This document shows, one piece after another, positions 31,093 through 62,550 of a DNA stretch of 64,000 bases. Below the pieces are notes generated by a model that was not told where the DNA came from, did no database searches, and saw only the letters and a list, made by a program, of their open reading frames with translations. Each line of letters opens with the position of its first letter. Position 1 is the first letter of the stretch. Made by a program: the position numbers and the translations under genes. This stretch comes from Anaerolineae bacterium (GTDB lineage: Bacteria > Chloroflexota > Anaerolineae > CAZYHC01): the NCBI GenBank assembly GCA_034417895.1, contig DAOULT010000051.1, positions 4,996 to 68,995 on the forward strand, given 5' to 3'.

Positions 31093-31095
31093 TGG

Positions 31096-32418
31096 CTATC
31101 CGCCGTCCTCTATGGTTATATCCACGTAAGCCGTCATTCCCCAGCGCAGGCGTGGGTCCGGGTCGTCGATCTCGATGATGGCCGTGTAATTGGTGCTGCC
31201 CTTCTCTACAGTGGCCATCGGCGAGATGCGGCTTACCCGACCGCTCATCACCTGGCCTGGCAGGGCGTCGAGGGTGATCTGCACCTCCTGCCCGATCTTC
31301 ACTTTAGCCACGTCCGTTTCTCTCAGGTCGGTGGTCTCGATGCGCAGGTGGGTCAGGTCGCCGAAGACGATCACTGGCTGACCGACCATCACCTGTTCTC
31401 CCTCTCTGAAATGCACCACCCCGACCGTGCCGCTAAAAGGGGCGCTCAAGGAGGCGTCCTTTAAGTCGGCCCTGGCCTGATCCAGAACGGTCTGGGCCTC
31501 ATTCACCTGGGCCTGGGCGATGGCTATCTCTTCGGCGCTGGCCCCGGCCTTAAGCAAATCCAATTGGGCTTTAGCCTGGGCCACCAGCGCCTTCTGGCCC
31601 TCGACCTGCGAATAAGCAGCCTCGACCTGGGTGCGGGCCACTTCGACCCCGGCCAGGGCCTCCTCGACCCCGGCCTGGGCGATGGCGACCTCTTCGGCGG
31701 TGGCCCCGTTGAGCAGCGCTTCGTACCTGGCTTTGGCGATCTCGTAATCGAGGGTAGCCCGCTGAAGGGCCAGGGCCTGGGGAGTGACCCCGACCCCGCT
31801 CTGCCAGGATACTTTATCGTACTCCGTCTGGGCCAGGGCCATAGCGTCCTCGGCTTTCATCATATTGGCTTTGGCTTCTCTGATTTCTTCTTCTCTGCTG
31901 CCGGCCTGCACCCGCGCCAATTCGGCCTGAGCTGCTTTCAGTCTGGCCTGGGCCGCTTTCAGATCGGCCTCGGCGGTAGCCAGTTCGGCCTGGGCGGCGG
32001 TCACGGCGGCCTGGGCGGTGCGCACCTCTTCCTCGGCGGCGGCGATTTCCTCTGGCCGGGCGCCGGCCTGGAGTTGAACCAGGCGAGCCTGGGCTGTCCT
32101 CAAGGCGGCTTCGGCCTGGGCTACCATAAAATCCAGGTCTTCCTCGCTATCCAGGCGGGCCAGAAGCGTGCCCTCCTCCACGGGATCTCCTTCCTGAACG
32201 GCCAGGTGAGCCAGCAGTCCGCCGATCTCGAAGCTGAGGGTGGCCCATCGCTCCGGCAGCACCGTGCCCGAAGCCCAGATCACGGCCTCTTCCTCTTCTC
32301 CTTCTTCGCTCTGCGCTTCGGGAGTGGGCGTCGAAGGTTGGGCCAGGTAACGGCTATACCCGAAGTAGGCCAGAACCAGGACGATCAATATCACCAAGAC
32401 GACGATGACTTTTCTCAT
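31096..32418 (-). CDS. HlyD-family periplasmic adaptor (membrane fusion protein) with a long Ala-rich coiled coil.
   Basis: N-terminal TM, extended alpha-helical AQA-rich hairpin, C-terminal beta-barrel ...VKIGQEVQITLDALPGQVMSGRVSRISPMA. Confidence 0.75.
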   Translation of the reverse strand: MRKVIVVLVILIVLVLAYFGYSRYLAQPSTPTPEAQSEEGEEEEAVIWASGTVLPERWATLSFEIGGLLAHLAVQEGDPVEEGTLLARLDSEEDLDFMVAQAEAALRTAQARLVQLQAGARPEEIAAAEEEVRTAQAAVTAAQAELATAEADLKAAQARLKAAQAELARVQAGSREEEIREAKANMMKAEDAMALAQTEYDKVSWQSGVGVTPQALALQRATLDYEIAKARYEALLNGATAEEVAIAQAGVEEALAGVEVARTQVEAAYSQVEGQKALVAQAKAQLDLLKAGASAEEIAIAQAQVNEAQTVLDQARADLKDASLSAPFSGTVGVVHFREGEQVMVGQPVIVFGDLTHLRIETTDLRETDVAKVKIGQEVQITLDALPGQVMSGRVSRISPMATVEKGSTNYTAIIEIDDPDPRLRWGMTAYVDITIEDGG

Positions 32419-32480
32419 AGTAACATCCTTGTTGACACTCTCTTGTCATCATTACACTGTGTGTAGTGACGTAGCTTTGG

Positions 32481-38949: not shown

Positions 38950-39086
38950 TCGTCTATTCCTACCACTATTATACAGGCGAAAGAACCTTTCGTCAAGGGC
39001 GATTTTGGGGGCTGGCCCCTGGCCTTCGGAGGTCGAGGCGGAAATGAGTCTAACAAATCTCTCGGTGTTCTCCGTGCTCTCCGGGG

Positions 39087-45394: not shown

Positions 45395-48288
45395 AGCCCG
45401 GCTCCTTCCACTTCTATTTCGCTCAACTGGATGGCGTCTCGTCCGTCGGGGGTAGCCAGCCGTTGACCGCTTACGGCTTCGTACAGGCCGACTTCGAGCC
45501 TGTAACGACCGGGCGGCGCGTCGGACCTGATTTCCAGCCGGTAGTCGTCGGCGATGATTTCGTCCTGCACCCAACTGGTGGTGGGGAAAATCGGCGGGCG
45601 GTCCCGCTGGCCCCAGATGCGGCCCGATTGATCCAGCAGATGCACAAAAACGGTGTAACTGGTATCTGTCTCGCCTGGCGCCCGCCAGTAAAGCCGCAGG
45701 TTCAAAGTCTGGCCTGCTTTCAAGTTCGTCTCTTCTGTTTCGTAGCCCAAAAGCTCCGCCACTCCGCCCAGGTTCGCCCGCACGGGGTGAGCCACAGAGG
45801 GCGGCTCGAAGTTTCTGGGCCGCTCCCGCACCGTGACCGCGCCCAGCGTGGCCTGGCCTTTTTCCTCTTGAACGACTGAAGTCGTTACTACGCCTGCCCC
45901 CAGCAGGGCCACCGTCAACTGGTAATCCCCGCCCGGCAGGCGCCCGCTGACGACCATCTCCTGGCGGTCGCGCACTATCTCCCCTTTCTGCCAGGCGGTG
46001 GTGGGGTAGCGGGGACTGTTCAGCTTTTCGGCCCACACCTGGCCCGACCCGTCCAGGAAGCGCAGGGCTACGGTGTAGTCGCCCTTTACGTCTGTTTCGG
46101 CCCGCCAGTAGAGGACCGGGGCAAGTATTTCGCCGCCCTGAATTTCGCCGCCTTCGAAGTCGTGGCCTAGCAAGGTGATTTCGTCTCCCATTTTCTGCTC
46201 CAGGGCGTACCGCATCGTCAGCTCGTCCGCTGGCGGGAAGGCTTTCGGCCTGACTACCGCCAGGCGGCCCAGCGCCAGGTCGTGGCCCACTCCGGCCTCG
46301 CCCACCGCCTCCAGGGTGCGGCCCGTCTGGAAAGAGTACAGCCCGGCGTGCAAAGTGTACTCTCCCGGCGGAGTGCCCGGCAAAACCTGTAAGTCGTACT
46401 CGTCCACGATGAACGTACCTGGCTGCCAGCGGTCTGTGGCCCAGTAGCCCATCACCGGCAGGCGGTCCACCTGTCCCCAGGGGTGGCCTTCTTCGTCTGC
46501 CAGCCGCAGGTAGACGTTGTAACTTTCGCCCATTTCGGCCAAAGCCTGCCAGTAAAGCGTGACGTGACATTCCCCGCCCGACTCCACCCTGTCCGGGCGC
46601 AAATCGTAGCCTGAAAGTCGCGCCTGTTCGCCGAAGAAGCCGCTTACGGGGTGCGCTATCTGCGCTGGCGGCTCGAACCCGACCACCGGCCCCCGGTAAA
46701 TCCAGGCGTAGTCTATCCCGGCCAGGCGCACCACATGCTCAGCCTGTCGCCCCTGGAAGTAGTCCACCAGCCCGGCCAGAGGCAGGCCGCGTTGGGTCTG
46801 GTTGAGGTAGAAAACGGCGTAGTCCGCGCCCAGGGTTGGCTCGGCGTCGAACAGGTCTACCGTCCGCCCCCGGAAGAAAGGCTCAAACTGGCGGCTGTAC
46901 CAGGCGGCCACCTCCAGCTTCTCGGCCTCTGGTTTGGCGTTCAGGTAGCGGGCCGCCTCGTCCAGTCCCTCGCCCCAGCCGACCGATAGCGCCCAGGGAG
47001 CCAGCCGCCCGCCGCCGACCAGCGGATCGTAGTAAGTGATATAATACGGGAAATGCGGCAGGGCAAAAGCGGCCTGTAAAACCAGGGCGAAGCCACAGAG
47101 TACACCGAGAACACGGAGAGATTTGGCCTTAATCTCTGTGCCCTCTGTGGCTATAAAAAGGTGCCACAGCCCGAAAGCGGCCAGCACGTCCACCGCCGGA
47201 AAAATGGGCAAAAGGTAGCGGTCGCCTTTTTTGTGTCCCACCGTCACCAGCAGAGCGAAGCCCAGGGCGTAAAGCAACAGGGACAGTATGGCCCTTCGAC
47301 TTTCCCCCGCCCGGTTTCTGATCCACAGGAACAGGGCCGCCGCCAGCCCCAACAAAACCGGCGGCGTGCTCCTGAAAAGGAAGCTCACCGGGTAGAAAAG
47401 CGGGCCGGGGTCGGCTCTGGCCTGGCCGAAGAGAAAGGTGCCTTTGGCGTGGGGGGCGAAGGTGGCCGCCCTGGCGATGTCCCACACCGCTTTGATCGCT
47501 CCCAAAGGATCGACCCACAGCACCGGCCACAGAGCCAGCGCCACCAGAGCGGCTGCCAGGCTCCAGATCACGAACTGGCGAAGGCTTGAGCGCCCGCGAT
47601 GAATCAAAGCAACCACGCCCCAGAAGGGCAGGAGAAAAACGGCGGTCGATTTGGTCAAAAAGGCCAGCCCTGCGCACAGCCCCGAAAACACCAGGTAAAA
47701 CAACGAACGGAACAACGTAGAAAGACCCTTTGGGTTTTCAAAATCCAAAGGGTCTGCCAAATGAACGAGCAGGCTCAAAGCCGAAGCGATCATAAAAGTC
47801 GCCACCAGAGCGTCGTGATGAATGAAGCGCGAATGGGCCAGGTAAAAAGGGTCGAAGGCCAGCAGGAGGGCGGCGGCCACCCCCACCCCGGCTCCGAAAA
47901 GCTCCCGGCTCAGCCAGTAAACGGCCACCACGCACAGGGCGGCCAGCAAAACAGTCGGCATCCGCACGGCGGGCATCAGCTCAGGCGGGGCCGGATAGGG
48001 TATGGAATCCAGGAACTCCGCCAGGGGCAGGCCGCGCTGCCAGGCGTAAAGCGTAAGCCCGATGGCCCCTGTCCAGCGGGTGGTCACGGCTGGCCCGGCC
48101 CAACCCGGAAAGCTTTCGGCCAGGTTTCCACGCAGCAGAGCGGCCAGGAATTGGCCTGACCATTGCACCCAGTCCAGCTCGTCGCCGGTCAGAAAGAAGT
48201 CCAAGGCTAACGCTCGTGGCGCGAAGCCTAGCAGGAACAAAACGGCCATCAAAGCGCCTTCGCGCCTCCAATCGTTTCTTTCGCCCAT
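45391..48288 (-). CDS. GT-C fold membrane glycosyltransferase (GT39-like, GDELDWVQW motif) with three C-terminal repeat-domain copies (cluster gene b, paralog of 52088..54928).
   Basis: Start trimmed to ATG 48288 (MGERNDWRREGALMAVLFLLGFAPRALALDFFLTGDELDWVQW...). An alternative is ATG 48249. Three LSGYDL/LLGHDF/LLGYETE...LYW(Q/R)A repeat units. Confidence 0.7.
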   Translation of the reverse strand: MGERNDWRREGALMAVLFLLGFAPRALALDFFLTGDELDWVQWSGQFLAALLRGNLAESFPGWAGPAVTTRWTGAIGLTLYAWQRGLPLAEFLDSIPYPAPPELMPAVRMPTVLLAALCVVAVYWLSRELFGAGVGVAAALLLAFDPFYLAHSRFIHHDALVATFMIASALSLLVHLADPLDFENPKGLSTLFRSLFYLVFSGLCAGLAFLTKSTAVFLLPFWGVVALIHRGRSSLRQFVIWSLAAALVALALWPVLWVDPLGAIKAVWDIARAATFAPHAKGTFLFGQARADPGPLFYPVSFLFRSTPPVLLGLAAALFLWIRNRAGESRRAILSLLLYALGFALLVTVGHKKGDRYLLPIFPAVDVLAAFGLWHLFIATEGTEIKAKSLRVLGVLCGFALVLQAAFALPHFPYYITYYDPLVGGGRLAPWALSVGWGEGLDEAARYLNAKPEAEKLEVAAWYSRQFEPFFRGRTVDLFDAEPTLGADYAVFYLNQTQRGLPLAGLVDYFQGRQAEHVVRLAGIDYAWIYRGPVVGFEPPAQIAHPVSGFFGEQARLSGYDLRPDRVESGGECHVTLYWQALAEMGESYNVYLRLADEEGHPWGQVDRLPVMGYWATDRWQPGTFIVDEYDLQVLPGTPPGEYTLHAGLYSFQTGRTLEAVGEAGVGHDLALGRLAVVRPKAFPPADELTMRYALEQKMGDEITLLGHDFEGGEIQGGEILAPVLYWRAETDVKGDYTVALRFLDGSGQVWAEKLNSPRYPTTAWQKGEIVRDRQEMVVSGRLPGGDYQLTVALLGAGVVTTSVVQEEKGQATLGAVTVRERPRNFEPPSVAHPVRANLGGVAELLGYETEETNLKAGQTLNLRLYWRAPGETDTSYTVFVHLLDQSGRIWGQRDRPPIFPTTSWVQDEIIADDYRLEIRSDAPPGRYRLEVGLYEAVSGQRLATPDGRDAIQLSEIEVEGAGL

Positions 48289-48316
48289 TGGCGTCGTTCG
48301 TCTTGTCCGTTGCGCG

Positions 48317-50188
48317 CTATTGTGGCTCAAGCGTGACTTCTCCCAAAAGGATCTGGTCGTTGCCCAATCTTTCGCCCGTATGCGGCGAATACAGCCCCAC
48401 CGCCAGCCGGTAACGGCCTGGCGCAAGCTCTTCCCCGAAGGGCAAAAAGTGGCGGTCGGGGATGATTTCGCCCGGCCTCCAGGCGGTGGTGGGCAAAAGC
48501 CCGTGCAGAGGTGGGCCATCGGCCTGCGCCCGCACCTGGGGCGCGTCGTCGAGCAGGTGGACGAAAACGGTGTAATCAGCGTCCATTTCGGCCCTGGCCT
48601 GCCAGTAAAGCGTAAGTTCCAAAAGGCCGGATTCCTGCTCCAAATCGTAGCCCAAAAGCCGCGCCACTCCCCCCAGGTCGGCCCTCAGAGGGTGTTGAAT
48701 CTCGTCCGCCGAGGGGCGGAGGGCGTAGAAGATGCGGCGCTGGTCGTCGTAGACGCGCTGAATCAGGTAGTTTTCTTCCGCCCAGGCCAGGTAATCCGGC
48801 AACAGGAGCAGAAAGCGCCCACTCCAGGAAATGACCACCGGGGGGCGATATTCTTCCGTCTGGGCCAGAAGCTCCTCGACGGTCAGATACCCGCTCTTGA
48901 TTAGCACGATGGAAGTGTCGGCCAGGGAAGGCGGCGTATGCCGGCCGGCGCCAAAGACCAACATCTGGTCGTCGCTGATGATCCAATCGTGGGCGGTGGT
49001 GATCTTTTGCAGCCAGGCGACCGCGTCTTGCTCCCGGCCACCCTGCGGCGCGGCAGAGGCTTCGAGGTTGGCTTGTATCGTGGCCGGCAGGCTCCACAGG
49101 TAAAACGCCAGAGCGCCCAGCCCCAACCAGGCCAGTGGTGTTTTGCGCCGGGCGAGGTCGGTCAGGTGGCTCGCCATCTGGCCGAACGCTCCTCCGGCCA
49201 GGATAGCCAGCGGCGGCAAAAATACGGTCAGTTGATGGTCACGCAGGGGCGTATGTACCATCATGGTCGTAACCGCCAGTAGAAGCCAGACCGCAGCCCA
49301 CCAGATTGGCCGCGATTTTCTTAACCCCAGGGCCAGCCCGCCGTAAAGGGCCAGGATCACCAGCCCCCGGTGGGTCAGAAAATACTCGGCGATGCATCGC
49401 CCGTTTTGGAGAGGATTCAGAGGATAGGCTTCTCTGACCTGCCAGCGGAAGGCTACCACCTGCTCGTACATGGCCCGGCTGTCGAGGCTCAGAAGGCAGA
49501 GCAGCAAGGGCAGAGCCAGACCCAGCCCGAAAACGAGCAGATCCAGCGCTGTCTTCTGCCCTCTCCTCTCCTCCGAAAAGCGATGCCAGATGACGATCAG
49601 GGTCACCAGGAACACGGCGAAAGGGGAAAGCACTTTGATCAGCAGGCCAGCCGCCAAGCTCAGCCCTGATAGCGCCAGCCAGCTTCTCTGGCCCCGCCGA
49701 CAGTAGTAAAAAGCAAGGAGAATGGAAAATGCCCCCAACCCTACAGCGGGCACGTCGCCCAGGCAGGCCCTTGAGTAGAGAAAGAAGTCCGGGGTGATAG
49801 AAAGCAGGATCACGGCGGTGATGGCAGCCACACGCCCTGCTATCCTGCGGGCAATAAGCCCCACGGCCAGAAGGCCGGACATCGAATAGAGGACGATGAT
49901 CGTCCGCGCCGCCGCCGTCGTCGTGCCCAAAACCCTGAAAGCCAGGGCAATGGAAGCGATGAAGAGCGGGGCAGACAAAGAGAAAACGTCGGCGTATAGA
50001 CGCTGCCCGGAGTTCATCAGCCGGGCCAGCATTATGTGTGTTCCCTCATCGTTTTCCCAGCCAAAGCCCTCCAGGCCATGTAGCCGCACGACCAGAGACA
50101 AAGCCAGGATGCCGAGCAAAGCGACCCGGTAGATCAACTCGGCCCGCTCCATGCTTGTGGCCTCAGCGTCATTCCTTCCAGCGGCCAT
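48317..50188 (-). CDS. GT-C fold membrane glycosyltransferase (ArnT/GT83-GT39-like) with one C-terminal repeat domain (cluster gene c, paralog of 50189..52084).
   Basis: MAAGRNDAEATSMERAELIYRVALLGILALSLVVRLHGLEGFGWENDEGTHIMLARLMNSG... polytopic. C-terminal IQHPLRADLGGVARLLGYDLEQESGLLELTLYWQARAEMDADYTVFVHLLD...PGRYRLAVGLYSPHTGERL. Confidence 0.75.
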   Translation of the reverse strand: MAAGRNDAEATSMERAELIYRVALLGILALSLVVRLHGLEGFGWENDEGTHIMLARLMNSGQRLYADVFSLSAPLFIASIALAFRVLGTTTAAARTIIVLYSMSGLLAVGLIARRIAGRVAAITAVILLSITPDFFLYSRACLGDVPAVGLGAFSILLAFYYCRRGQRSWLALSGLSLAAGLLIKVLSPFAVFLVTLIVIWHRFSEERRGQKTALDLLVFGLGLALPLLLCLLSLDSRAMYEQVVAFRWQVREAYPLNPLQNGRCIAEYFLTHRGLVILALYGGLALGLRKSRPIWWAAVWLLLAVTTMMVHTPLRDHQLTVFLPPLAILAGGAFGQMASHLTDLARRKTPLAWLGLGALAFYLWSLPATIQANLEASAAPQGGREQDAVAWLQKITTAHDWIISDDQMLVFGAGRHTPPSLADTSIVLIKSGYLTVEELLAQTEEYRPPVVISWSGRFLLLLPDYLAWAEENYLIQRVYDDQRRIFYALRPSADEIQHPLRADLGGVARLLGYDLEQESGLLELTLYWQARAEMDADYTVFVHLLDDAPQVRAQADGPPLHGLLPTTAWRPGEIIPDRHFLPFGEELAPGRYRLAVGLYSPHTGERLGNDQILLGEVTLEPQ

Positions 50189-52087: not shown

Positions 52088-54928
52088 CTATTCCCCACTC
52101 CCTATTTCCACCTCTTCCAGTATAATCCGGTCATCTTGCGCCCCGCCCAAAACAGGCAGCCGTTCCCCGCTGAGCACTTCGTACAGGCCGACGGCCAGGG
52201 TATAGCGGCCCGCCGCAGGCGCCGCCACCTCCCGCGCCTCAATGACCACCTCTCCGACCGACCAGCCAGTGGTGGGCAGCGGCGGCGGGCCATCCTGCTG
52301 AGCCTGAATCTGGCCTTTTTCGTCCAGGAGGTGCACGAAGACGGTGTAAGCAGTTTCCATTTCAGAGAGAGCCTGCCAGTAAAGCGTCAACTGCACGGTC
52401 CTTGCCGGTTGTACCTCCAGGTCGTAGCCCAATAGCGCGACCAGGTTCCCCAGGTTGACTTTCAGCGGGTGTTGTGTGGGCGGCGCTTCAAAAAGCCTCT
52501 CCCGGCTCTGCACCTCCACCCGGCCCAAAGCGACAGGCCCCGATCTTTCCCCCGTCCGACCGTCCGCCAAAGCAATCATCAGGCGATACGCCCCGCCGGG
52601 CACACCGCCAGACACCAGGAAGTCCCGCACGTCGCGCCCGATTTCCCCTTTCTGGCCGGGGAGGGTGGGGCGTTCCTGCCGTTCGCCCCACGACCGGCCT
52701 TCTTCGTCTTCCAGCCACAGGGCGAGCAGGTAGTCCCCTTGCACCTGGCGCCTGGCCCGCCAGTAGAGGGTCAGGGGCAAACGCTGGCCAGAGGAGGCCG
52801 CACCGCCCTCGAAGTCGTAGCCTAGCAGTTCGATTTCGGCGTTCAGGCTGTTTTCCAACTGGTGTTGCATAGCCAGTTCTGCGAGCGTGGGTGGGGAGGA
52901 TGGCTTTGTGACGGTCACCATTCCCGGCGTAAGCCCTCCGCCGAAGCCGGGGCGCGCTCCCCCGTGAAGCTCGGAAACGTTCAACACCCGCCCGCTACCG
53001 TTCGCTGTTTGGAGCGAGTAAAGCCCTACTTCCAGCCGGTACTCTCCCGGCGGAGTGCCGGGCGGAATGAGCGGGGCGTACTCGTCGGTTATAAACATGC
53101 CCGCCCGCCAGTGCAGGGTGCGCCACAGCCCCAGCACCGGCCAGCGGTCCTGTGCGGCCCAGATGCGCCCCTGCTCGTCCACCAGCCGCAGGTAGACGTG
53201 GTAATCTTCCTCCAGGTCTGCCAGGCAGCGCCAATGTAGGGCCAGGCGCAATTTCTGGCCGGAGGCTGCTGGCTCCAGGTCGTAGCCGGAAAGCTCCACC
53301 CGTCCGTCGAAAACGCCGCCCGCGTGATAGCCAGCGACCGGCCCCGACCCAAAGCCGTAAACCGGCCCCCGGTAAAGCCAGGCGTAATCGATGCCCTTGG
53401 CCCGCACCACGTATTCGGGCCGCCGCAGGCCGAAATATTCGAGCAACTCCGCGCTCGGATAGCCGCGCTGAAGCTGGTTGACATAAAAAACGGTGTAGTC
53501 GGCTTTTAGAGCCGCGCCCTCTTGGGCCAGGCCGACGACCTGGCCTCGGAAAAAAGCGGCCAACTGGCGGCTGAACCAGGAAGCGGCCACCAGTCCACCG
53601 CCTGTCTCGTTCGCTGTTTCGTTCAGGTAGCGGCCCGCCTGGTCCAACCCCTCGCCCCAGCCGATCAATAGAGCCTGCCGCGCCAGATGCGTCCCTCCCA
53701 TAGCCGGATTGTAATAGCTCAGGTAATAGGGATAATGCGGCAGGCTGAGGCCGACCTGCACCAGCACGCAGCCAAAAGCGAACCCAACAGCGAACAAATG
53801 CGAGAGGTTCAGAACTGGCCGAAACTTCGAGCTTAGAGCCTCAAGCGATCTCCAGAGTCCCCACCCGGCCAGCAGGTGCAGCGTGGGGAAAACGGCCAGC
53901 AGGTAGCGGTCAAGCTTCTTGGCGCCGAGCGAAATGAAAATGGCGAAGAGCAGGACGTAAATCGCCAAAACGCCCAGGCTCCATTTTCTTTCCCTTTTTT
54001 CCCGTCGCCAGGCGAGCAAAGCGCCCGCCAGCCCCAACAGTACAGGCGGCGTGGCCCGAAATAGAAAAACGAGGGGATAAAACCCCAGGCCGGGGTCGTC
54101 CACGATGCGGCCCAGGAAATACTGCCGATGGCCGGCTTCGGCCAGGTCGAGCGAACCGCCCAAAGTCAGCCACAAAGTACCCAGCGGCCTGACCCACATG
54201 GCGGGCCAGACCAATCCCACCGCCAGAGCCATCGCCCCGCCAAAAATCGCCAGGCTCTTCACTGTCCGCTTCCGCCCTGCGATCAACATCCCGCAGCCAA
54301 AAGGGAGCAGAAACAAAGACGGAGACTTGCTCAAAAAGGCCAGTCCTGCCGTGACCCCCGACAGGGTGAGCCAGAACACCCCTTTTGCCCCATTATCAGC
54401 GCCATTTCGCAAATAGACGGCCAGGCTCAAAACGGAAACGGTGGCAAAGGTGGCCGCCAGAGCGTCTTGATGCAGGATGCGCGAGTGGGCCAGGTAAAAA
54501 GGGTCGAAAGCGGCCAGCAAGGCCCCCAGCAGCGCTGCCTTTTCCCCGACCAGCAGCCGACCCCACTGGTAGAGCAAAGCCACTCCCAGGGCAGTCACCA
54601 AGGCGATAGTCAGCCGCATGGCAGCCAGCGTTTCCGGGTTCACGGCTGGCGCAGAGTCCCGGCCCGTCAGCAGCAGCCCCAAAGCGCCGCTCCACATGGT
54701 GGTCACGCCGGGGTGAAAGGTCTGGGCGGTATCGGCCCAGCGTCCTTCTTGCAAAGCGGCCAGGAATTGGCTGGCCCATTGCACCCAGTCCGACTCGTCC
54801 CCGGCCATAAAAGCCGAAAGTCCCGCCAGACGCGGTGCCAGGGCTGCCAGGAAAACTAAACACGAATAAACGAATGGGCGAAGGCTGCTACCATCAACTG
54901 GCTTACCTTCATTTACGCCTTCACTCAA
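52088..54928 (-). CDS. GT-C fold membrane glycosyltransferase (GT39-like, GDESDWVQW) with three C-terminal repeat domains (cluster gene e).
   Basis: Paralog of gene b. The track start at 54928 is a TTG overlapping the upstream stop by 8 nt, and there is no in-frame ATG for 41 codons, so the start codon is uncertain. Repeat units LSGYDLEPAASGQKLRLALHW..., IELLGYDFEGGAASSGQRLPLTLYWRA..., VALLGYDLEVQPARTVQLTLYWQALSEMETAYTVFVHLLDEKGQIQAQQDGPP. Confidence 0.7.
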   Translation of the reverse strand: MSEGVNEGKPVDGSSLRPFVYSCLVFLAALAPRLAGLSAFMAGDESDWVQWASQFLAALQEGRWADTAQTFHPGVTTMWSGALGLLLTGRDSAPAVNPETLAAMRLTIALVTALGVALLYQWGRLLVGEKAALLGALLAAFDPFYLAHSRILHQDALAATFATVSVLSLAVYLRNGADNGAKGVFWLTLSGVTAGLAFLSKSPSLFLLPFGCGMLIAGRKRTVKSLAIFGGAMALAVGLVWPAMWVRPLGTLWLTLGGSLDLAEAGHRQYFLGRIVDDPGLGFYPLVFLFRATPPVLLGLAGALLAWRREKRERKWSLGVLAIYVLLFAIFISLGAKKLDRYLLAVFPTLHLLAGWGLWRSLEALSSKFRPVLNLSHLFAVGFAFGCVLVQVGLSLPHYPYYLSYYNPAMGGTHLARQALLIGWGEGLDQAGRYLNETANETGGGLVAASWFSRQLAAFFRGQVVGLAQEGAALKADYTVFYVNQLQRGYPSAELLEYFGLRRPEYVVRAKGIDYAWLYRGPVYGFGSGPVAGYHAGGVFDGRVELSGYDLEPAASGQKLRLALHWRCLADLEEDYHVYLRLVDEQGRIWAAQDRWPVLGLWRTLHWRAGMFITDEYAPLIPPGTPPGEYRLEVGLYSLQTANGSGRVLNVSELHGGARPGFGGGLTPGMVTVTKPSSPPTLAELAMQHQLENSLNAEIELLGYDFEGGAASSGQRLPLTLYWRARRQVQGDYLLALWLEDEEGRSWGERQERPTLPGQKGEIGRDVRDFLVSGGVPGGAYRLMIALADGRTGERSGPVALGRVEVQSRERLFEAPPTQHPLKVNLGNLVALLGYDLEVQPARTVQLTLYWQALSEMETAYTVFVHLLDEKGQIQAQQDGPPPLPTTGWSVGEVVIEAREVAAPAAGRYTLAVGLYEVLSGERLPVLGGAQDDRIILEEVEIGSGE

Positions 54929-57392
54929 TGATTGTCACCTCTTGCAAAAAGACGCTATTGCCCTGCGGATTGCCGGCCTGGTCAAAAACTTCCAGGCGTT
55001 GGCCGCTTTCGGGTTGGTAAAGCCCGGCCAGCAGGGGATGGCGGCCAGGCGGGGTATCGGCCCCGACCGGCACCCGATAACGCTCGATCACAGGGTGGCC
55101 GGGCCGCCAGTCCGACGTCCGGTAAAAGCCGCACAGGGGCAGCCCATCCCGCTGGCCCCAAATACGCTCGTTGTTGCGCTCGTCTTCCAGGTGGATGAAA
55201 ACGCTGTAATCCTTTTTCATGGTGGTCAGCGCTTCCCAGTAAAGGGTCAGAACCAGGCTCCCCCCTGGCTGCGCCTTCTCGCTCTCCAGATCGTAGCCCC
55301 GCAGGCGGATACGGTGGCCCAGGTCGGCGGTCAGAGGATGAGCAGGGGTCGGCCGCCGGGCGACGGCCTCCGGCGTCGTGCCCCGATCAAAAGCGGATTC
55401 CGCCTCCCGCGCCTCGCAGGTTATCGAGGAGGCTTCGGCCGGGGGATGGCGGTAAAGGCGCAGTTCTGGCTCGCCGTTCACCGTGACCACGCCCATCGGC
55501 GCGTAGCCTTCAGGCAGGGAGACTCCGAGCCGCTCGTCTCGCACCCGGTCGGCCATGATGTAGTACTCGGCGTCAGGGCAGTAGGAGCGTATGGCGCCCC
55601 GCGCATACCAGGCCGTGATCTCGCCCTCCTCGTTGCTGTTGTAATCGCCCCGCAAGACCCCCTCGGCGTAAAGCTGCCCGATGGCCTTCCACCCGGCCCG
55701 ATAAGGGAAGCCAAAGAAAGCGGCGGGAGGCAGGTGGCGGTAAGCTGTCCAGTAGAGAGAGCTTCTGTGGGCCGGATAAGTCCAGATGTATTGCGGTTCG
55801 CACTGGATAAAGGCCAGGTAGATGTATCCGGCAAAGACCAGGTACAAAAGGATAAACACGCCCGTAGTAACGATTTCAATCGTTGTCTTCGCGGTTGGAC
55901 GACTAAAGTCGTCACTACAAACCCGCAGGCGCTGCCACATATCATCCAGCCCCAGTCCGGCCATGAGCATCCAGGCCGGGAAGAAGGTGTAAACGTGAGT
56001 CAGGGGATGCGCCACCAGAAAGGTGTAGAGCAGGAAAGGGACCCCAAACCAGATCAGGCAGGTCATCCATTCCACCGAAAAGAAGGACGCCCGGCCAGCC
56101 CTCAGACGCTTAACCACCGCCCAGGCCAGGGCCAGAATAATGAAAACAAAATAGTAAGTCGAGTTGTAGACCGTGCTCTGCAAAAAAGTAAAGCCCAGGT
56201 TGTTGTGGAGAAGCCCGCTCCCCAGGCGCCGGCCTACCAGATAGCGGTAAGTGGTGGTCGCCTGGGGATCGAGCCAGAAGGGGAGATAGAAAAGGCCGCT
56301 CAAGACCAGGAATATTGCCAGCGCTAAGACGTAGCCCCGCAGCTCAACGCCTTCCCCCTTCCACTTCTTTCGGCTTTTCCAGGCCAGGTAAAGGATGGCG
56401 GGCAGCACCAGAGCGGCATCGTAATGGGCCAGAAGGCCGCAGGCGGCAAACAGCGCCCCAGGAACCTGATAGCGCCCGGCCCCTTCAGCGTAGAAACGGT
56501 AGTAACAGTAAAGGGCCAGGCCCATCATCAAAAAAACCAGGCTTTGATATTGCACGATGCGGGCGAAGCCCACGAAATAGCCGTTGATGGCGGCCAGGGA
56601 TGCGGCCAGCCACCCGACACGCAGGCTGAACATGCGCCCTCCCAGGAGATAGACCACTCCTACCGCCAGCAGACCGGCCAGGGCGAAAGGAAAACGCGCT
56701 CCCGCCTCGTCGATCCGGCCCGTGAGAAGCCAGCAGGCGGCAGGGAGCAGAATCTCGGCCGGGCCTTTGCCGTGGGCGAAAAGGGCGTCGTCCCAGCCCT
56801 CGATGACCTGGGCGGCTCTTAACATAACCAGGGCTTCGTCGCCCTGAAACTCGGAATAGCCCAGGGAGGCGAAACGAAAGAACGAAGCCAAAACTATAAC
56901 CACCAGGAGCACGCTGACACGGATTTTGGTCACGGATATCACGGATTCCACCATCGATCGTGCCTTGAGCCGTGAAATCCGTGACCCTAATCTGTGTTGG
57001 CTCTTTCCCATCCACAGCGCCAGGGCCAGAGGAGCAAGGATAAGCGCATCGCAGACGATAAGCAGTGAAACGGAGGTCAGGCGACCGGGCAGATAATGTA
57101 GAAGCAGCGCGCCCACCAGCGAGAGGGCGTAACTGGCTCCACAGCCGAGCACAATTCTCTCTATCAGGTCGGTCTCGGCGGCCAGGGGGATAAGCTCCAG
57201 CAGAGCGAAGCCGGGCAGGATGCAGAGCAACAGGACGGCGCTCGCGTAACGCACGGGCCAAAAATCAACGGCCAGCAGAACCGCGTTAGCCCCGACCAGA
57301 GCCAGGACGAGCCAGAAAAACCCTCCCGGCCTCCAACCCCGACCATCGCCTCCCGACCGTATATTATTTCTTCCCATTCCAATTTCTGCCAT
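54921..57392 (-). CDS. GT-C fold membrane glycosyltransferase (GT39-like, FQGDEALVMLRAAQ motif) with one C-terminal repeat domain (cluster gene f, paralog of 59798..62179).
   Basis: ATG at 57392. C-terminal AHPLTADLGHRIRLRGYDLESEKAQPGGSLVLTLYWEALTTMKKDYSVFIHLEDERNNERIWGQRDGLPLCGFYRTSDWRPGHP...PGRHPLLAGLYQPESGQRL. Contains an in-frame AATCCGTG palindromic element at 56925..57002. Confidence 0.75.
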   Translation of the reverse strand: MAEIGMGRNNIRSGGDGRGWRPGGFFWLVLALVGANAVLLAVDFWPVRYASAVLLLCILPGFALLELIPLAAETDLIERIVLGCGASYALSLVGALLLHYLPGRLTSVSLLIVCDALILAPLALALWMGKSQHRLGSRISRLKARSMVESVISVTKIRVSVLLVVIVLASFFRFASLGYSEFQGDEALVMLRAAQVIEGWDDALFAHGKGPAEILLPAACWLLTGRIDEAGARFPFALAGLLAVGVVYLLGGRMFSLRVGWLAASLAAINGYFVGFARIVQYQSLVFLMMGLALYCYYRFYAEGAGRYQVPGALFAACGLLAHYDAALVLPAILYLAWKSRKKWKGEGVELRGYVLALAIFLVLSGLFYLPFWLDPQATTTYRYLVGRRLGSGLLHNNLGFTFLQSTVYNSTYYFVFIILALAWAVVKRLRAGRASFFSVEWMTCLIWFGVPFLLYTFLVAHPLTHVYTFFPAWMLMAGLGLDDMWQRLRVCSDDFSRPTAKTTIEIVTTGVFILLYLVFAGYIYLAFIQCEPQYIWTYPAHRSSLYWTAYRHLPPAAFFGFPYRAGWKAIGQLYAEGVLRGDYNSNEEGEITAWYARGAIRSYCPDAEYYIMADRVRDERLGVSLPEGYAPMGVVTVNGEPELRLYRHPPAEASSITCEAREAESAFDRGTTPEAVARRPTPAHPLTADLGHRIRLRGYDLESEKAQPGGSLVLTLYWEALTTMKKDYSVFIHLEDERNNERIWGQRDGLPLCGFYRTSDWRPGHPVIERYRVPVGADTPPGRHPLLAGLYQPESGQRLEVFDQAGNPQGNSVFLQEVTIIE
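56925..57002. repeat. Palindromic short repeat element of the AATCYGTG family (ggtcacggatatcacggattcc...gccgtgaaatccgtgaccctaatctgtgttggct), in-frame inside GT-C gene f.
   Basis: Inverted arms read directly. Related copies are at 28900..28965 and 29195..29240 (inside GT-C gene 28530..30149). The element shares the 3' tail ATCTGTGTTGGCT with the element at 31076..31092. Confidence 0.6.
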
Positions 57393-57407: not shown

Positions 57408-59801
57408 TCACTTTTCCCCGAATCTTTCAACCCTCACCGGGCCAAGCAGAATGTGGTCGCTTCCATCCACAGTCAGCCGTTGGCCGCTTTGGGCTTCGTA
57501 TAGCCCTACCTCGACGGCATATTCCCCGGCTGGAGCATCGGGCGGGGCGGCGATCTCGTACACGTCCTGGATGAACTCGCCCTCTACCCACAGACTGGTG
57601 GGCGCCGCGCCTCGGACGGGCGGGTTGTCTTTTCCTCCAAAAACTCGCCCCTCCTCATCGAGCAGGTGGGTGAAAACGGTGTAATCCTGGTCCATCCCGG
57701 CCAGGGCCTGCCAGTAGAGGGTCAGGCGCAGGGCGTCGCCGGCCCTAACTGTGGCCGCCAGATCGTAACCCACCAGGCGCACCACTCCGCCCAGGTCAGC
57801 CCCTACCTGGTGCTGCACTTTTGGCCGGGCGAAAATCCGCCGGGCCTCGATACCCCTGGGCATCCCGCACCGTTTGCCGAATTCCATCAGCCGGAGCGCT
57901 GTGCCGTTGGCCGGCAGCCTGGGAGCCAGGGCCGCATCCCGCACCTGGGGCTTCAGGCGGCGGCCCACTTCCCAGGGGTCGGTCCCATCCACCACGCCCA
58001 GGGCAATGCCGTAGCGCGCCCGGTCGCGGGTGTACCACGACAGGGTATCAGCCACCACGCGCACCGTTTCCCCCGGCTGCCAATGACTGGTCGGGTGCCA
58101 GACCGTCACCGGCTGAGGCTGGTCGGTGCTGCCTGTGACGTTCCCTTCCTCGTCCAGAAGGTAGAGGGCGATCAGATAATCCCGCTCCACCTCCTGCAAG
58201 GCCGTCCAGTACAGGTTGAAGTTGACTTCTTCTGCGCGGTTATAGAGAACGTCGAAGCCCAGAAAACGCAACTCGGAGCCGAAATCGACCGTCATGGGAT
58301 ACTGGATGGCGGGGTTGTCCACCGTGACGAAGCTATAGAAATCGCGAGATAAAGGTTGATGCGGCGCGCCCCGGCGGAGCAAGACGTAACCGTCCTGGCT
58401 GGCTATCACCCCGAAATCATCTGCTGTCTCGATCCAGTCCTGGAGAGAGCCGTGCACGTTGTCCTTGTTGGGCAGGGTGGATACGTCCAGGAACACGTAT
58501 TCTATATCGTCGCGGTGGACGACCTGGTAAACCCGTCGGCGCTGGCTGACGTGGGGGTTGAGGTTGATCTGGGCGCTCAGGACGGCATCCGGCGGGATCA
58601 TTTCGATGAACTTCTGGGCCAGGCGGTGGTGGGCGGTGACGGGCGGCCAGCGGAAGGGGGCGGCCAGCGGTGAGAAACCACGACAGTAGTGATAGCCCAC
58701 ACTGACCACCAGCACGAGGGCCGACAGGAGATGGACCAACCTCCGAGAATCGAGTTTCAGCCAGCGGCTCAAGGTTTCGCTCAGGGCTTCAAGGCCATAG
58801 ACGCCAGAGACCAGGACAAAGGGCACGATGGGGGCCGCATAGTGAAACTCCTCCAGGCGGTGCATGAAGGCGTCCTCGCTGAGCAGGTTGACGGCCAGGG
58901 AGGGCAGGGCCAATACCAGGGTCAGAGGGCTTAACAGGGACAGGAAGGCCAGGGGCAAAAGCAAGCCTTTCAGATAGTTTAAGGCCCCGGCTTTCGACAA
59001 TTGATCGACCACGACCCCCGGCTGGCCGAAGATGGTTTTCACCATCTGCCAGGGGGTGTCGCCCAGGTAGGCGTAGCGCCTGACGTGGATGTTAGCTCCC
59101 ATCGGGCTGAAGGGCGGGGTGATGACGAAAACGGCCAGAAAGAACCACAACCCCGCCCCCAGGACGGTCAGCCATCCGGCTCGCCGCTCCCGCTGCACGA
59201 CCAGAATGTACAGCCCCATGGCCGCCACCAGCAGACACATATCCTCCTTGCAGCTCATGGTCAAGATGGCGAACAGGGCGAAAGGACGATAAGCCCTCTT
59301 TTGCAGGAAATAGAAAGCGGCCAAGAGACAGGGAACGGCCAGGGTTACAGCGTGGAAGTCGAACAGATTGGCCGCTTCCAAGGCGGGGAAAAGCAGATAG
59401 GCGGCGGCGAAGGCCAGCGCGGCAAAATCGCTCTTCAGCCTGTCCCTGGTCAGCAGAAAGGCAGGCCAGGCTCCCAGAGCCAAGACCACCGTTTGCAGCA
59501 CCAGCAGAGTCAGCGGGCTGGAATAGAGTAGATAAGTCAACGAGACGACCAACAGGATAGGCTCAAAGTGCAGCGCCAGGCGGCTCTCCAGGCCGTCCAT
59601 CTCGATGCCGTCCATGTTGGTGAAGCAGAAGAGGCAGCCGTGCAGGGTGTTATAAACCGCCTGATCGACGTTGCCCAGGTCGTAGCCGTGAGTTTCGAAC
59701 ACGGCGTGGCGGTGGATGGACAGGGCGCTGAAGGTCACGGCGTAGAGGACGACCAGCAGCCAGAGCGCAGCCACAAAAAAGCGAGAGGGATCGCTTTTCA
59801 T
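57408..59801 (-). CDS. DUF2079-like polytopic membrane protein (GT-C-like putative glycosyltransferase) with two C-terminal repeat domains (cluster gene g).
   Basis: N-terminus ...SIHRHAVFETHGYDLGNVDQAVYNTLHG... resembles DUF2079 (from recollection, not certain). C-terminal LRFLGFDVLYNRAEEVNFNLYWTALQEVERDYLIALYLLDEEG... and VRLVGYDLAATVRAGDALRLTLYWQALAGMDQDYTVFTHLLDEEGRVFGGKDNPP...AGEYAVEVGLYEAQSGQRL. ATGA overlap with gene h. Confidence 0.65.
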   Translation of the reverse strand: MKSDPSRFFVAALWLLVVLYAVTFSALSIHRHAVFETHGYDLGNVDQAVYNTLHGCLFCFTNMDGIEMDGLESRLALHFEPILLVVSLTYLLYSSPLTLLVLQTVVLALGAWPAFLLTRDRLKSDFAALAFAAAYLLFPALEAANLFDFHAVTLAVPCLLAAFYFLQKRAYRPFALFAILTMSCKEDMCLLVAAMGLYILVVQRERRAGWLTVLGAGLWFFLAVFVITPPFSPMGANIHVRRYAYLGDTPWQMVKTIFGQPGVVVDQLSKAGALNYLKGLLLPLAFLSLLSPLTLVLALPSLAVNLLSEDAFMHRLEEFHYAAPIVPFVLVSGVYGLEALSETLSRWLKLDSRRLVHLLSALVLVVSVGYHYCRGFSPLAAPFRWPPVTAHHRLAQKFIEMIPPDAVLSAQINLNPHVSQRRRVYQVVHRDDIEYVFLDVSTLPNKDNVHGSLQDWIETADDFGVIASQDGYVLLRRGAPHQPLSRDFYSFVTVDNPAIQYPMTVDFGSELRFLGFDVLYNRAEEVNFNLYWTALQEVERDYLIALYLLDEEGNVTGSTDQPQPVTVWHPTSHWQPGETVRVVADTLSWYTRDRARYGIALGVVDGTDPWEVGRRLKPQVRDAALAPRLPANGTALRLMEFGKRCGMPRGIEARRIFARPKVQHQVGADLGGVVRLVGYDLAATVRAGDALRLTLYWQALAGMDQDYTVFTHLLDEEGRVFGGKDNPPVRGAAPTSLWVEGEFIQDVYEIAAPPDAPAGEYAVEVGLYEAQSGQRLTVDGSDHILLGPVRVERFGEK

Positions 59802-62179
59802 TTAACCATCACCTCTTGCAACAGCACGCTGGTCCCCTGTGGGTTCCCGGCCAGGTCGAGGACGTCGAGGCGCTGTCCGCTGACAGGCTCATAGAGGCCG
59901 ACGGTCAACGGATATCGGCCCGGCGGCGTTTCGGGGGAGATGGGCAAGCGGCGGCGGTCAACGATTACCGTGCCAGGCCGCCAGGCGTTGGTTGGGTAGG
60001 TGCGGCAGACGGGCACGCCGTCGCTCTGGCCCCAGACGCGGTCTGATTCCAGGTGGCTGAAGACGTAGTAGTTAGTGCTCAGGCGTTTTTCGACCTGCCA
60101 GTAAAGCGCCAGCCGCAGGCTACCAGCCGGGTGGGCGCGGCTGGCGTCCAGGTCGTAGCCCAAAAACTGCACCTGGGCAGAAGGGCCTTTCAGCGTGATG
60201 TTCAGAGGGTGGTCAATGGCTGGCTTCCCAACCATGTTTCGGGATGTGATCCGGCGGTCGAAGTCGGCTTCGTAATCCCCGGCGGCGAGGGGGCCAAAAT
60301 CGGCCTGGGCCTGGGGATGTCGGTAGATGCGCAGCCTGGGTTTGCCCCCGACCAGCACGCTGCCAGCCGACACGTACTCTTCCGGCACGTCGCCGATGGG
60401 TTGTTCGTCTTGCACGTTTTCGGCTATCAGGTAGTAGTCGGCGGCCTCTTCGGGGCAGGCGCGGGGCGCGTGGCGCGTATACCAGAAGGTGATGACGTCC
60501 TCCTCGTTGCTCAGGTAATCGCCTCGTAGCGCCCCGGTGCGATAAAGTTCGCCCACCGCCTTCCACCCGGCGCGGTAAGGAAAGCCGAAATAACCTTCCG
60601 GGGGCAGCTCGTCGTAAACTGTCCAGTAGAAGTCATTTTTGTGGGCCGGGTAGGTGCGTTTGTATTCCGGGTCGTGCCAGACGAAGACCATAAAGATGTA
60701 CCAGGCAAAGACCAGGTAGAGGGCGACGAAAACCGCCCGCCCGGCCATGGCCCATCTAATCCTCCCCAACAGCCTGTCAATCTCATCCAGGGCCAGCCCG
60801 GCCAGCAGCGTCCAGCCCGGGAAAAGGGTGTAAACGTGGGTCAGCGGTTTGGCGACGAAAAAAAGGTAAAACGCGGCGGGTACAGCCAGCCAGATGAAGC
60901 ACGCTGTCCGACCCACATCAAGCCTGGAAAGAGCAGCCAGCACCGCCCAACCCAAAAGCAGAGGCAGAAAGACCAGGTAGTAAGTCGAATTGTAAACCGT
61001 GCTCAGCACGAAGAAAGAAGGCAGGTTGTTCACAGGCAGGCTGTGGCCTAGCCTTTTGCCCTCCAGGTAGCCATAGGTGGACGCAAACTGCTGGTCGGCC
61101 ACGAAGGGCGGGTAAAAAAGCAGCGGCACGACCACTGCCAGAAGCAGGCAAAGGGCCAGCCATTTTTTGCCCCCGGCCCACTGCCCGGCCAGCAGGTAAA
61201 GCGCCGCCGGAAGAATCAGCACGGTATCATAGTGGGTCAGCAGGCCGAAGCCCAAAAACAGTCCGCTCAATAAAGCGTGACCCCCGGCCCGGTTGGCGCG
61301 GAAACGGTAAGCGCACCACAAAGCCAGCCCGCTCATAGCCAGCACCAGGCTTTGATACTGCACCACCCGCCCAAAGCCGACAAAGTAGCCATTGACCGCC
61401 AGAAGCAGTCCGGCCAGAAATCCTACCCGCTGGTTGAACATGCTGCGGCCTAGCAGGTAGAGGGCCGCCACACCCAACAGGGCGGCCAGGGCGAAAGGCA
61501 TACGCGCCCCCCATTCCGTGATCCGCCCTGTGAGCAGCCAGGTGGAGGCCGGGATCAGGATCTCTGCCGGGCCTTTAGCGTGCGTGAACAGGACGTGATC
61601 CTGTCCCTCGAGGGCCTGGGCCGCCTTGAACATAACCACCGCTTCGTCGCCTTGGAATTCGGAATAACCCAGGAAAACCAGGCGCGGCACAGCAGCAACC
61701 ACCAGCAAGACCACCAGCGACCAGTTACAATCGGAGGCCAGGCGGCTGGCTCCCTTCATAACCGCGAAGAGCACGAAGGACACAAAGTCTTTATCTTCAC
61801 ACTCCTGGTGTTCTTTGTGCTCTTTGTGTCCTTTGTGGTGAAAAGCTCTGATCAGGAGCAAGGGCGCAAGGGTCAGCAGGTCGCAGGCCAGGAGGATGGA
61901 GGCCACGCTCATGGGGCCAGGCAGGTAGTGCACAATCAGCGTGGTCAGCGACGAAAGAACGTAACTGAGGCCGCCGCCGAGCGTCAGACGCTCCACCCCA
62001 CTGACATCCCCGGCCAGCTCCATGAGGGCCAGGCCGGGCAGGAAGAAGAGCAGCAGAACGGCGCTCAGATAGCGTAAGACCGCCAGATCGGTGAGAATTA
62101 TGAAAACATTAGCCGCCGCCAGGGACCCAATAAGCCACAGATGCTTGCGTTTCCAAAGAAGATACGCAGGAGGAGCCAT
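59798..62179 (-). CDS. GT-C fold membrane glycosyltransferase (GT39-like, FQGDEAVVMFKAAQ) with one C-terminal repeat domain (cluster gene h).
   Basis: Start trimmed to ATG 62179 (the track start at 62182 is TTG). Paralog of gene f. C-terminal IDHPLNITLKGPSAQVQFLGYDLDASRAHPAGSLRLALYWQVEKRLSTNYYVFSHLESDRVWGQSDGVPVCRTYPTNAWRPG...PGRYPLTVGLYEPVSGQRL. Carries an in-frame palindromic element at 61783..61860 encoding HKGHKEHKEHQECEDKDFVSFVLFAVMK. Confidence 0.75.
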   Translation of the reverse strand: MAPPAYLLWKRKHLWLIGSLAAANVFIILTDLAVLRYLSAVLLLFFLPGLALMELAGDVSGVERLTLGGGLSYVLSSLTTLIVHYLPGPMSVASILLACDLLTLAPLLLIRAFHHKGHKEHKEHQECEDKDFVSFVLFAVMKGASRLASDCNWSLVVLLVVAAVPRLVFLGYSEFQGDEAVVMFKAAQALEGQDHVLFTHAKGPAEILIPASTWLLTGRITEWGARMPFALAALLGVAALYLLGRSMFNQRVGFLAGLLLAVNGYFVGFGRVVQYQSLVLAMSGLALWCAYRFRANRAGGHALLSGLFLGFGLLTHYDTVLILPAALYLLAGQWAGGKKWLALCLLLAVVVPLLFYPPFVADQQFASTYGYLEGKRLGHSLPVNNLPSFFVLSTVYNSTYYLVFLPLLLGWAVLAALSRLDVGRTACFIWLAVPAAFYLFFVAKPLTHVYTLFPGWTLLAGLALDEIDRLLGRIRWAMAGRAVFVALYLVFAWYIFMVFVWHDPEYKRTYPAHKNDFYWTVYDELPPEGYFGFPYRAGWKAVGELYRTGALRGDYLSNEEDVITFWYTRHAPRACPEEAADYYLIAENVQDEQPIGDVPEEYVSAGSVLVGGKPRLRIYRHPQAQADFGPLAAGDYEADFDRRITSRNMVGKPAIDHPLNITLKGPSAQVQFLGYDLDASRAHPAGSLRLALYWQVEKRLSTNYYVFSHLESDRVWGQSDGVPVCRTYPTNAWRPGTVIVDRRRLPISPETPPGRYPLTVGLYEPVSGQRLDVLDLAGNPQGTSVLLQEVMVK
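61783..61860. repeat. 78-bp (26-codon) palindromic repeat element inserted in-frame in a loop of GT-C gene h. It is homologous to the element at 30995..31092.
   Basis: gagcacgaaggacacaaagtctttatcttcacactcctggtgttctttgtgctctttgtgtcctttgtggtgaaaag. Internal inverted repeats cacaaag/ctttgtg. It replaces the loop region that in paralog f holds a different repeat element. Confidence 0.7.
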
Positions 62180-62550
62180 CAATGCTGTCTTTGCTCCGGG
62201 AGTCGGAAGTCCACCACCGAGCCTAGCAGGCTCTCGTAGCCCAGGCCGGTGGTGAAGATCATAGCCAATTGCACGATGGTAGGCTCGGCGTGGTTCAACT
62301 GCACCTGACGATAAACCACGGGCAGCAAAACTATCCCGCTGATAGCGCTGACGATCAACGAACGCGGGGAGAAAAAGCAGCCTCCCCGCTGCAAGGACCT
62401 CAGGTAATTGTTGGCGATGATGCCGACCACCAGCGCCAGATAGATGTACAACTGCCAGTCCGTGGTAAGAGCGTGGGCGGCTGTTGCCGCCTCGGTTCCT
62501 GGGCCTGCCGCCGCCCCGCTCAGATCGAAGTAATTAAGCAGCCAATCCAT
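62179..62550 (-). CDS. Small 4-TM membrane protein heading the GT-C array (possibly GtrA-like / lipid-linked sugar translocation accessory). Function unassigned.
   Basis: ATG at 62550 (MDWLLNYFDL...) with a strong RBS agaagggggg 10 nt upstream. The track start at 62559 is TTG. The stop overlaps the start of gene h by 1 nt (TGATG). Confidence 0.5.
   Translation of the reverse strand: MDWLLNYFDLSGAAAGPGTEAATAAHALTTDWQLYIYLALVVGIIANNYLRSLQRGGCFFSPRSLIVSAISGIVLLPVVYRQVQLNHAEPTIVQLAMIFTTGLGYESLLGSVVDFRLPEQRQH

Follow-up and report, generated by a model that had tools for sequence, protein, structure and literature searches.

Rickettsia palindromic elements (RPEs) lie between genes and also in-frame in unrelated open reading frames (ORFs), where they are translated, and several families are present per genome (Ogata et al., 2000; PMC10969869). 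Repetitive extragenic palindromic (REP) elements and REPINs are mobilized by RAYT transposases (PMC3116915; PMC3733652), and a conserved GTAG or CGTC tetranucleotide is found at one end of the repeat (PMC3733652). [quoted passage not shown] In this study, we analyzed a 64,000-nucleotide (nt) stretch of DNA from an Anaerolineae bacterium (assembly GCA_034417895.1, contig DAOULT010000051.1, positions 4,996 to 68,995), referred to below as the window. A sequence-only reading of the window had described short palindromic elements with an AATCYGTG core, embedded in-frame in two genes for GT-C glycosyltransferases, gene f and a distant GT39-like gene. We found that the element is a tandem-word, two-armed repeat with in-frame copies, here in the Chloroflexota. 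Its effect on genes is RPE-like and its genomic behavior is REP/REPIN-like, with two defining REP features failed. The whole explanation that we propose, with a probability of roughly 0.7, is that the AATCCGTG clusters represent a dispersed repeat, non-autonomous and restricted to this lineage, that is tolerated in protein loops and whose spread is linked to GxxExxY nucleases.

Expected word frequencies were taken from dinucleotide shuffles of the window, with 100 shuffles for the AATCYGTG count. CACRRAK, a looser word, was chosen to cover the neighboring element families as well. The family census was carried out with the exact 21-mer ATCYGTGACCMWAATCYGTGT against 185,579 species genomes (one per species; the source genome is not among them). 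The genome of an uncultured Anaerolineales bacterium, GCA_964646625.1, has syntenic orthologs, with GT-C proteins 75–82% identical to those of the window, and is referred to as the sister genome.

AATCYGTG/CACRGATT was found 10 times in the window, against 2.96 ± 1.78 in the shuffles, none of which (0/100) reached 10. All but one of these occurrences were confined to three clusters, at 28930–28959, 29211–29231, and 56918–56996. With the looser word, five clusters of at least three CACRRAK words per 30 nt were counted, against a shuffle mean of 0.01. The strings quoted by the sequence-only reading for gene f and the GT39-like gene were in place and not at chance frequency. It had also pointed to a 3' tail shared between the gene-f element and an element at 31 kb, and this was borne out by the 13-mer ATCTGTGTTGGCT, of which the window holds exactly two copies (31085–31097 and 56990–57002; 0 expected).

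The repeat unit is an arm of ~35 nt, AATCCGTG-A-AATCCGTG-ACCAA-AATCCGTG-TCAGC, with three ATCCGTG words at 9- and 13-nt spacing and a terminus GTGT-NN-GC. A 35-nt consensus, AATCCGTGAAATCCGTGACCAAAATCCGTGTCAGC, is common to all copies, spacer and conserved end included, and 18 arms end in GC-NN-ACACGGATT. Two inverted arms form an 80–90-nt hairpin, the doublet. In this anatomy the element departs from RPEs, which measure ~100–150 bp against the 35-nt arms and 60–90-nt doublets seen here; its tandem 7-nt words at 9–13-nt spacing, its many single arms, and its different phylum also set it apart, and a sequence relationship is not expected. Unlike a MITE, the element consists in essence of nothing more than a pair of subterminal word arrays. 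Two defining features of REP elements are missing, since the unit is not itself a 20–40-bp imperfect palindrome (its words are direct, and a single arm folds with z = -0.15) and no GTAG or CGTC head was present in the 18 arms examined. Cyanobacterial short tandemly repeated repetitive (STRR) sequences are short words tandemly repeated in intergenic spacers, in contiguous heptamer arrays without a defined end, and mycobacterial interspersed repetitive units (MIRUs) are 40–100-bp tandem units kept in-frame with neighboring genes. Neither type is built of two arms that share a conserved terminus.

In phase 0 the word CACRGAT gives HG/HR, in phase 1 SRI, and in phase 2 TDF, and its opposite orientation reads SV(I/T) or IRV. 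Because it is read in all three phases and in both orientations, what is repeated is DNA and not a peptide motif. The consensus arm lacks stop codons in four of its six reading frames, and in-frame survival is therefore possible.

The gene-f doublet consists of a left arm (56913–56947, the minus-strand arm), a loop (56948–56967), and a right arm (56968–57002). It is the strongest inverted repeat of the window, with 28-nt arms that are 86% complementary and 25 nt apart, and in its small size (~90 nt) and terminal inverted repeats (TIRs) it is MITE-like. Folded as RNA, it reached -42.8 kcal/mol (z = -5.64 against shuffles). At 28915–28970 in the GT39-like gene, the fold was no better than that of shuffles (z = -0.15). 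The palindromic character ascribed to the family by the sequence-only reading hence holds only for the gene-f copy; each of the two GT39-like copies is a single arm that does not fold in any special way.

The two host genes are PMT_2 (GT-C) genes with intact ORFs, and, as had been claimed, the elements are in-frame in them. Genes f and h (59798..62182) are paralogs with 51% identity, and their products share one layout, a conserved N-terminal four-helix extension followed by a GT-C core that starts at LGYSEFQGDE. Among 18 homologs, both flanking domains are conserved in one ORF, whereas the intervening linker is free to differ in both its length and its sequence. An exact look-up of the gene-f product gave no record, but the homology search returned an identical protein (P0001). 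It was confirmed that the CACGGATT words of f and the CACAAAG words of h occupy the same hypervariable linker, ahead of transmembrane helix 1 (TM1) of the GT-C core. In the AlphaFold2 model of f (mean predicted local distance difference test score [pLDDT] 81.9, predicted template modeling score [pTM] 0.85), the sole long internal segment with pLDDT <50 is amino acids (aa) 131–154, the element-encoded peptide. As with RPEs, the encoded peptide thus sits at a permissive site. At 56880–56912 (GTGCTCCTGGTGGTTATAGTTTTGGCT), the beginning of TM1 in gene f is similar to the CACAAAG element's right end and tail at 31067–31097 (GTGCTCTTTGTGGTTATATCTGTGTTGGCT), and part of this transmembrane helix may be element-derived, judging from the resemblance.

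Empty or differently filled orthologous sites in the sister genome support element insertion in the window genes. Gene h has a surplus of 75 nt (25 codons) over the empty site of its ortholog in locus L001. The f ortholog (82% identity) carries in the same linker one degenerate (half) CACGGATT arm and then a complete CACAAAG doublet. In the window, the sequence directly after the gene-f CACGGATT doublet is GTGCTCCTGGTGGTTAT, which resembles the right end of the CACAAAG element, GTGCTCTTTGTGGTTAT. Because CACGGATT and CACAAAG-like sequences are present in both genomes, the ancestral f linker probably held both families, a different part being lost in each genome. The GT39-like gene (75% identity to its ortholog by local alignment, 81% in the multiple alignment) has a surplus of 81 nt (27 codons) over the ortholog in locus L018 at 29128..29237, and one of 12 nt at 28928..28965, where the ortholog has different, G-rich words. 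The ~75-nt remainder of the 81-nt surplus had no other copy in the DNA examined. An element of a third family, with CACAGAG words (47091–47155), is conserved in the L001 ortholog at the corresponding position, apart from indels of 9 and 27 nt in which whole words were gained or lost. Every one of these length differences (75, 81, 12, 9, and 27 nt) is a multiple of 3 and the host ORFs are intact, as with RPEs. The peptides encoded by the inserts are absent from the orthologs.

The 21-mer was found at 16 loci, 11 of them in the sister genome and one in another Chloroflexota metagenome-assembled genome. The other four included two Bacteroidota loci and one uncultured-bacterium locus with the same kind of word hairpins. 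A Bacteroidota locus, L003, was rejected as an apparent chance match of the 21-mer in coding sequence. In Joint Genome Institute (JGI) metagenome contigs, the exact consensus 21-mer gave one match only, which argues that this arm subfamily is lineage-restricted.

The sister genome holds three doublets (L002, L006, and L009) and ~7 single arms, and some copies are fused to arms of other families. A ~120-nt composite, in which a CGCAGAG/CGCTGAG-word hairpin is joined to a CACGGATT arm, is present there in two copies with ~85% identity (L001:960–1066 and L004:2240–2356), so composites themselves appear to have been copied. The earlier proposal that the element families are related or composite was sustained, as the two families are often adjacent or composite. 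A GT39 paralog of the sister genome (P0125, locus L049) carries two in-frame palindromes of other families (3640–3730 and 4187–4260), one with CGGATT/CAGATT words and the other reading GTGCCTGGCAC...GTGCCAGGCAC, after which comes a hairpin like that of a terminator, AAACCAGATTTTTTGGCAAAAACCTGGTTT.

When the sister-genome copies are taken irrespective of their context, ~10/11 are intergenic, in 36–40-nt gaps between co-directional genes (L005 and L008), between convergent pairs (L002 and L009), and upstream of genes. The single intragenic copy is in-frame in a gene for a 653-aa CcmF-like cytochrome c maturation protein, where it gives GKRHGFWSRITQIG. Since most copies are intergenic and one is in a CcmF-like gene, the element does not need a GT-C gene. 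Several points of genomic behavior are shared with REP/REPIN systems: the elements are mostly extragenic; inverted hairpin doublets occur (gene f, L002, L006, and L009) and are the likely replicative unit; singlets are remnant-like; and a single-gene partner with cognate repeats is plausible. The occurrence of short palindromic dispersed repeats in several families, both between genes and in-frame, is shared with RPEs, and the small size, non-coding nature, and high copy number with occasional in-frame fusions to host ORFs are shared with MITEs. Unlike MITEs, the elements have no known parent insertion sequence with a DDE transposase. By eye, no flanking direct repeat was seen in five doublets, which is nearer to REP/REPIN than to MITE behavior, the orthologous empty sites being too diverged for junctions to be read. 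Unlike REP/REPIN systems, they showed no RAYT among the flanking ORFs examined, and the candidate partner is a PD-(D/E)XK protein of the GxxExxY type and not a Y1/HUH transposase. Arm pairs were also considered as the ends of larger transposons and rejected; in L017, two arms that face outward across 3.7 kb have ordinary metabolic genes but no transposase between them, and in L001, the pair flanks a fur gene with its outer ends facing inward.

The candidate partner was met at locus L010 (Chryseolinea), which was found by the arm 21-mer and holds a gene for a 126-aa GxxExxY PD-(D/E)XK nuclease (PF13366/TIGR04256) bracketed by word arrays. The function of this family (PDDEXK_3) is listed as unknown (PMC3424549). 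It gave >8000 matches, the top 120 of which are 83–99% identical across taxa. Loci L022, L030 (two tandem copies), L039, and L042 were chosen by protein similarity to GxxExxY only, and in all of them the GxxExxY genes are bracketed by the TIR TCTGAATCACGG...CCGTGATTCAGA and by CACRGAT(T) words, in the pattern (T)GTCTGAATCACGGATT-words ... words-AATCCGTGATTCAGAC. Over the six GxxExxY loci, L010 included, the 150-nt flanks held CACRGAT words at 23.6 times the density found elsewhere (p = 1e-18). A profile built from Anaerolineales arms alone matched both cassette flanks, with the outer ends pointing outward. The window elements resemble these cassette ends in their CACRGATT words, their terminal motif (TCTGAATCACGG vs GCTGA-CACGG), and their inverted arms; unlike the cassettes, they are gene-less. 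The cassettes examined come from Bacteroidota-type contigs. In L042, the cassette lies between hsdM and hsdS, and on either side of it stands an imperfect direct repeat, ~27 nt long, of the 3' end of hsdM (ttgaaa..atttttgaaaagttg; 330–400 and 900–960), perhaps the result of a long target duplication or the footprint of repair.

From their sequences, GxxExxY genes with word-array TIRs look like an undescribed mobile cassette. No description of flanking repeats was found in the literature on GxxExxY, PDDEXK_3, and PF13366, and none of the present elements in that on Chloroflexi REPINs. The window elements may be gene-less derivatives of such cassettes, by extension to this lineage. Loss of the gene from a cassette would leave a doublet like that of gene f, GCTGACACGGATT...AATCYGTGTYRGC, and the GxxExxY genes of this lineage would be bracketed by GCTGACACGGATT...AATCCGTGTCAGC. 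A wider proposal can be made only tentatively and is rather doubtful as a whole: the arms would be the gene-less ends of a widespread, undescribed class of mobile cassette whose only gene is the ~125-aa GxxExxY nuclease (>8000 near-identical copies across phyla), in a partnership like that of RAYT and REPIN built on a different fold, and the Anaerolineales derivatives would continually rebuild the variable loops of cell-envelope glycosyltransferases, even parts of TM1.

Under the explanation favored here, copies normally sit between genes, and those with a net length that is a multiple of 3 would survive on landing in sequence-tolerant loops of polytopic membrane proteins. In-gene copies would be translated as extra, probably disordered, loop residues, as in RPEs. 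The same permissive loops would be reoccupied by different families for want of other tolerant sites, and composites would arise from the tendency of elements to insert beside or within each other. Single arms would be decayed or truncated doublets. The arms would be homologous to the TIRs of the GxxExxY cassettes, with the nuclease as the likely mobilizing enzyme acting in trans. GT-C genes are hit repeatedly in both genomes, and all five intragenic window sites are in PMT_2 genes. The simplest reading of this recurrence is a selection filter, in which insertions are seen where they do no harm, in loops that are long and hypervariable and belong to a large and redundant membrane-protein family.

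Several observations weigh against this explanation. No transposition event, target-site duplication, or near-identically flanked empty site was seen at the loci compared. No GxxExxY gene was detected by tblastn, and no transposase was found among the flanking ORFs, in the window and the ~200 kb of Anaerolineales DNA examined. The likeness between arms and cassettes rests on short motifs, with profile E-values of 2e-4 to 2e-3, except for a near-exact 30-nt match at L010. A function or mobility that depends on a hairpin is excluded for single arms, since these do not fold. The window arms are 4/4 intragenic, against ~1/11 to 2/16 in the sister genome; tolerance by itself does not fully account for the excess, though GT-C genes make up 34% of the window.

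The most probable alternative is that the elements actively target GT-C loops by site- or structure-specific insertion or recombination and so diversify the enzymes of surface glycosylation. The five of five intragenic window sites in PMT_2 genes, which are ~35% of the coding DNA, correspond to a rough post-hoc p of ~0.005; the same linker is filled by different families in paralogs f and h and in the f ortholog; and the GT39 paralog P0125 has its own two in-frame palindromes. However, copies sampled without bias are ~90% intergenic and the one intragenic case is CcmF, no conserved target sequence was seen at the insertion sites compared with orthologs, and the occupied loops are the hypervariable, low-confidence ones, as a selection filter predicts. 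We consider targeting unlikely. The sequence-only reading had proposed a small mobile repeat family that repeatedly targets GT-C loops; the dispersed DNA-level repeat with insertion signatures stood, and the specific targeting was not supported.

Only slightly less probable is that the words are operators or other binding sites, or an RNA signal (an internal terminator, processing site, or internal start), that co-regulate genes or split gene f. An arm of three direct words is like a multi-site protein-binding array, the gene-f hairpin is very stable, and by eye its loop has an in-frame ATG after AAGG. However, the flanked genes are unrelated and all arrangements of the copies occur (5', 3', convergent, and within operons), with no consistent position or orientation relative to promoters, and the words had no Rfam match. 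The f ortholog has a different element and the h ortholog has none, which means that these sites do not require a conserved signal. The regulatory signal common to GT-C genes that had been suggested earlier was accordingly not supported.

It is very improbable that selection on the proteins has favored a functional peptide repeat, such as a glycosyltransferase loop motif. The in-frame inserts do give tripeptide repeats (ISR-ISR, SVI-SVT, and HKE-HKE), but the three phases and both orientations yield unrelated peptides, most copies are non-coding, and the peptides are missing from orthologs; frame analysis, in which the copies share neither one frame nor one peptide, refuted a motif of this kind. 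Chance, compositional bias, or an assembly artefact, favored by nothing but the short word length, is refuted by the shuffle controls and by an independent assembly that has the 47-kb element and an f-linker arm at orthologous sites.

Table 1. Coordinates of the elements and host genes in the window, and of the GxxExxY genes at other loci.
Feature	Position	Strand	Description
Gene f	54921..57392	-	823-aa PMT_2 (GT-C) glycosyltransferase with conserved N-terminal 4-helix extension
CACGGATT-word doublet (hairpin)	56913..57002	.	In-frame in gene f; encodes aa ~131–160 (QHRLGSRISRLKARSMVESVISVTKIRVS)
GT39-like PMT_2 gene	28530..30149	-	539 aa; ortholog 494 aa; family members typically 485–500 aa
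Single arm (AATCCGTGAAATCTGTGACCAAAATCCGTGTTAGCC)	28928..28965	+	In-frame in GT39-like gene; encodes ANTDFGHRFHGLW; no hairpin
Single arm 29204–29237 (CCGTGAAATCCGTGAAGGAAATCCGTGTCTGCC) plus ~75 nt unique sequence	29128..29237	+	In GT39-like gene
CACAAAG-family doublet plus tail	31020..31097	+	Intergenic; doublet 31020–31083, then directly ATCTGTGTTGGCT (31085–31097)
CACAAAG-family doublet	61761..61840	.	In-frame in gene h
CACAGAG/CACGGAG-family doublet	47091..47155	.	In-frame in GT-C gene 45391..48519
CACVGAG-family single arm (TCTCGGTGTTCTCCGTGCTCTCCGGGG)	39054..39085	+	Intergenic, immediately 3' of TPR/GAF gene 39087..41546
AACRGATT-word non-coding hairpin	14897..14974	.	Similar architecture; family membership unproven
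GxxExxY genes	L010:4079–4459; L022:601–978; L030:601–981 and 1088–1453; L039:401–775; L042:401–781		Word arrays and TIR

The window contains eight PMT_2 (GT-C) genes and one DUF2079 gene. ORFs 42515..46570 and 45391..48519 overlap by 1.2 kb; because the PMT_2 domain of the former begins only at aa 459, its true start is probably internal. In the region 30146–34715, a MacB/ABC/HlyD efflux operon lies between mgtE and the GT39-like gene, which adjoin each other in the sister genome (L018). The intergenic CACAAAG element, whose ATCTGTGTTGGCT tail is identical to the end of the gene-f element, is inside this operon, between the ABC ATPase and HlyD-family genes. The CACVGAG arm adjoins the stop of the TPR/GAF gene, with a tRNA gene nearby (38876–38949).

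An unusually long (~1 kb) non-coding stretch at 14575–15640 holds two strong hairpins (14897–14974 and 15003–15089) and a 23/46-nt tandem array (15120–15245). The related words that the sequence-only reading had noted at 14905..14970 are present there as a hairpin of AACRGATT words, but this hairpin matched the arm profile nowhere and had no other copy in the DNA examined, so its place in the family is unproven. At the gathering threshold Rfam gave a tRNA and nothing else, and with E ≤ 1 no credible match turned up in the 14.6–15.7-kb non-coding stretch.

In-frame colonization by selfish palindromic DNA is best documented in Rickettsia. Its discovery in the free-living Chloroflexota as well would make it a general way for the loops of proteins to vary. 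Here, several element families occur, the occupants of one loop differ between the two sister genomes, and length changes by single words (9 nt). For annotation there is a practical warning, as the words give rise to spurious small ORFs and to odd stretches of low complexity in membrane proteins. Should the GxxExxY link be true, a huge nuclease family of "function unknown" would gain a testable function, the mobilization of tandem-word repeats, and a second model system would stand beside RAYT/REPIN.

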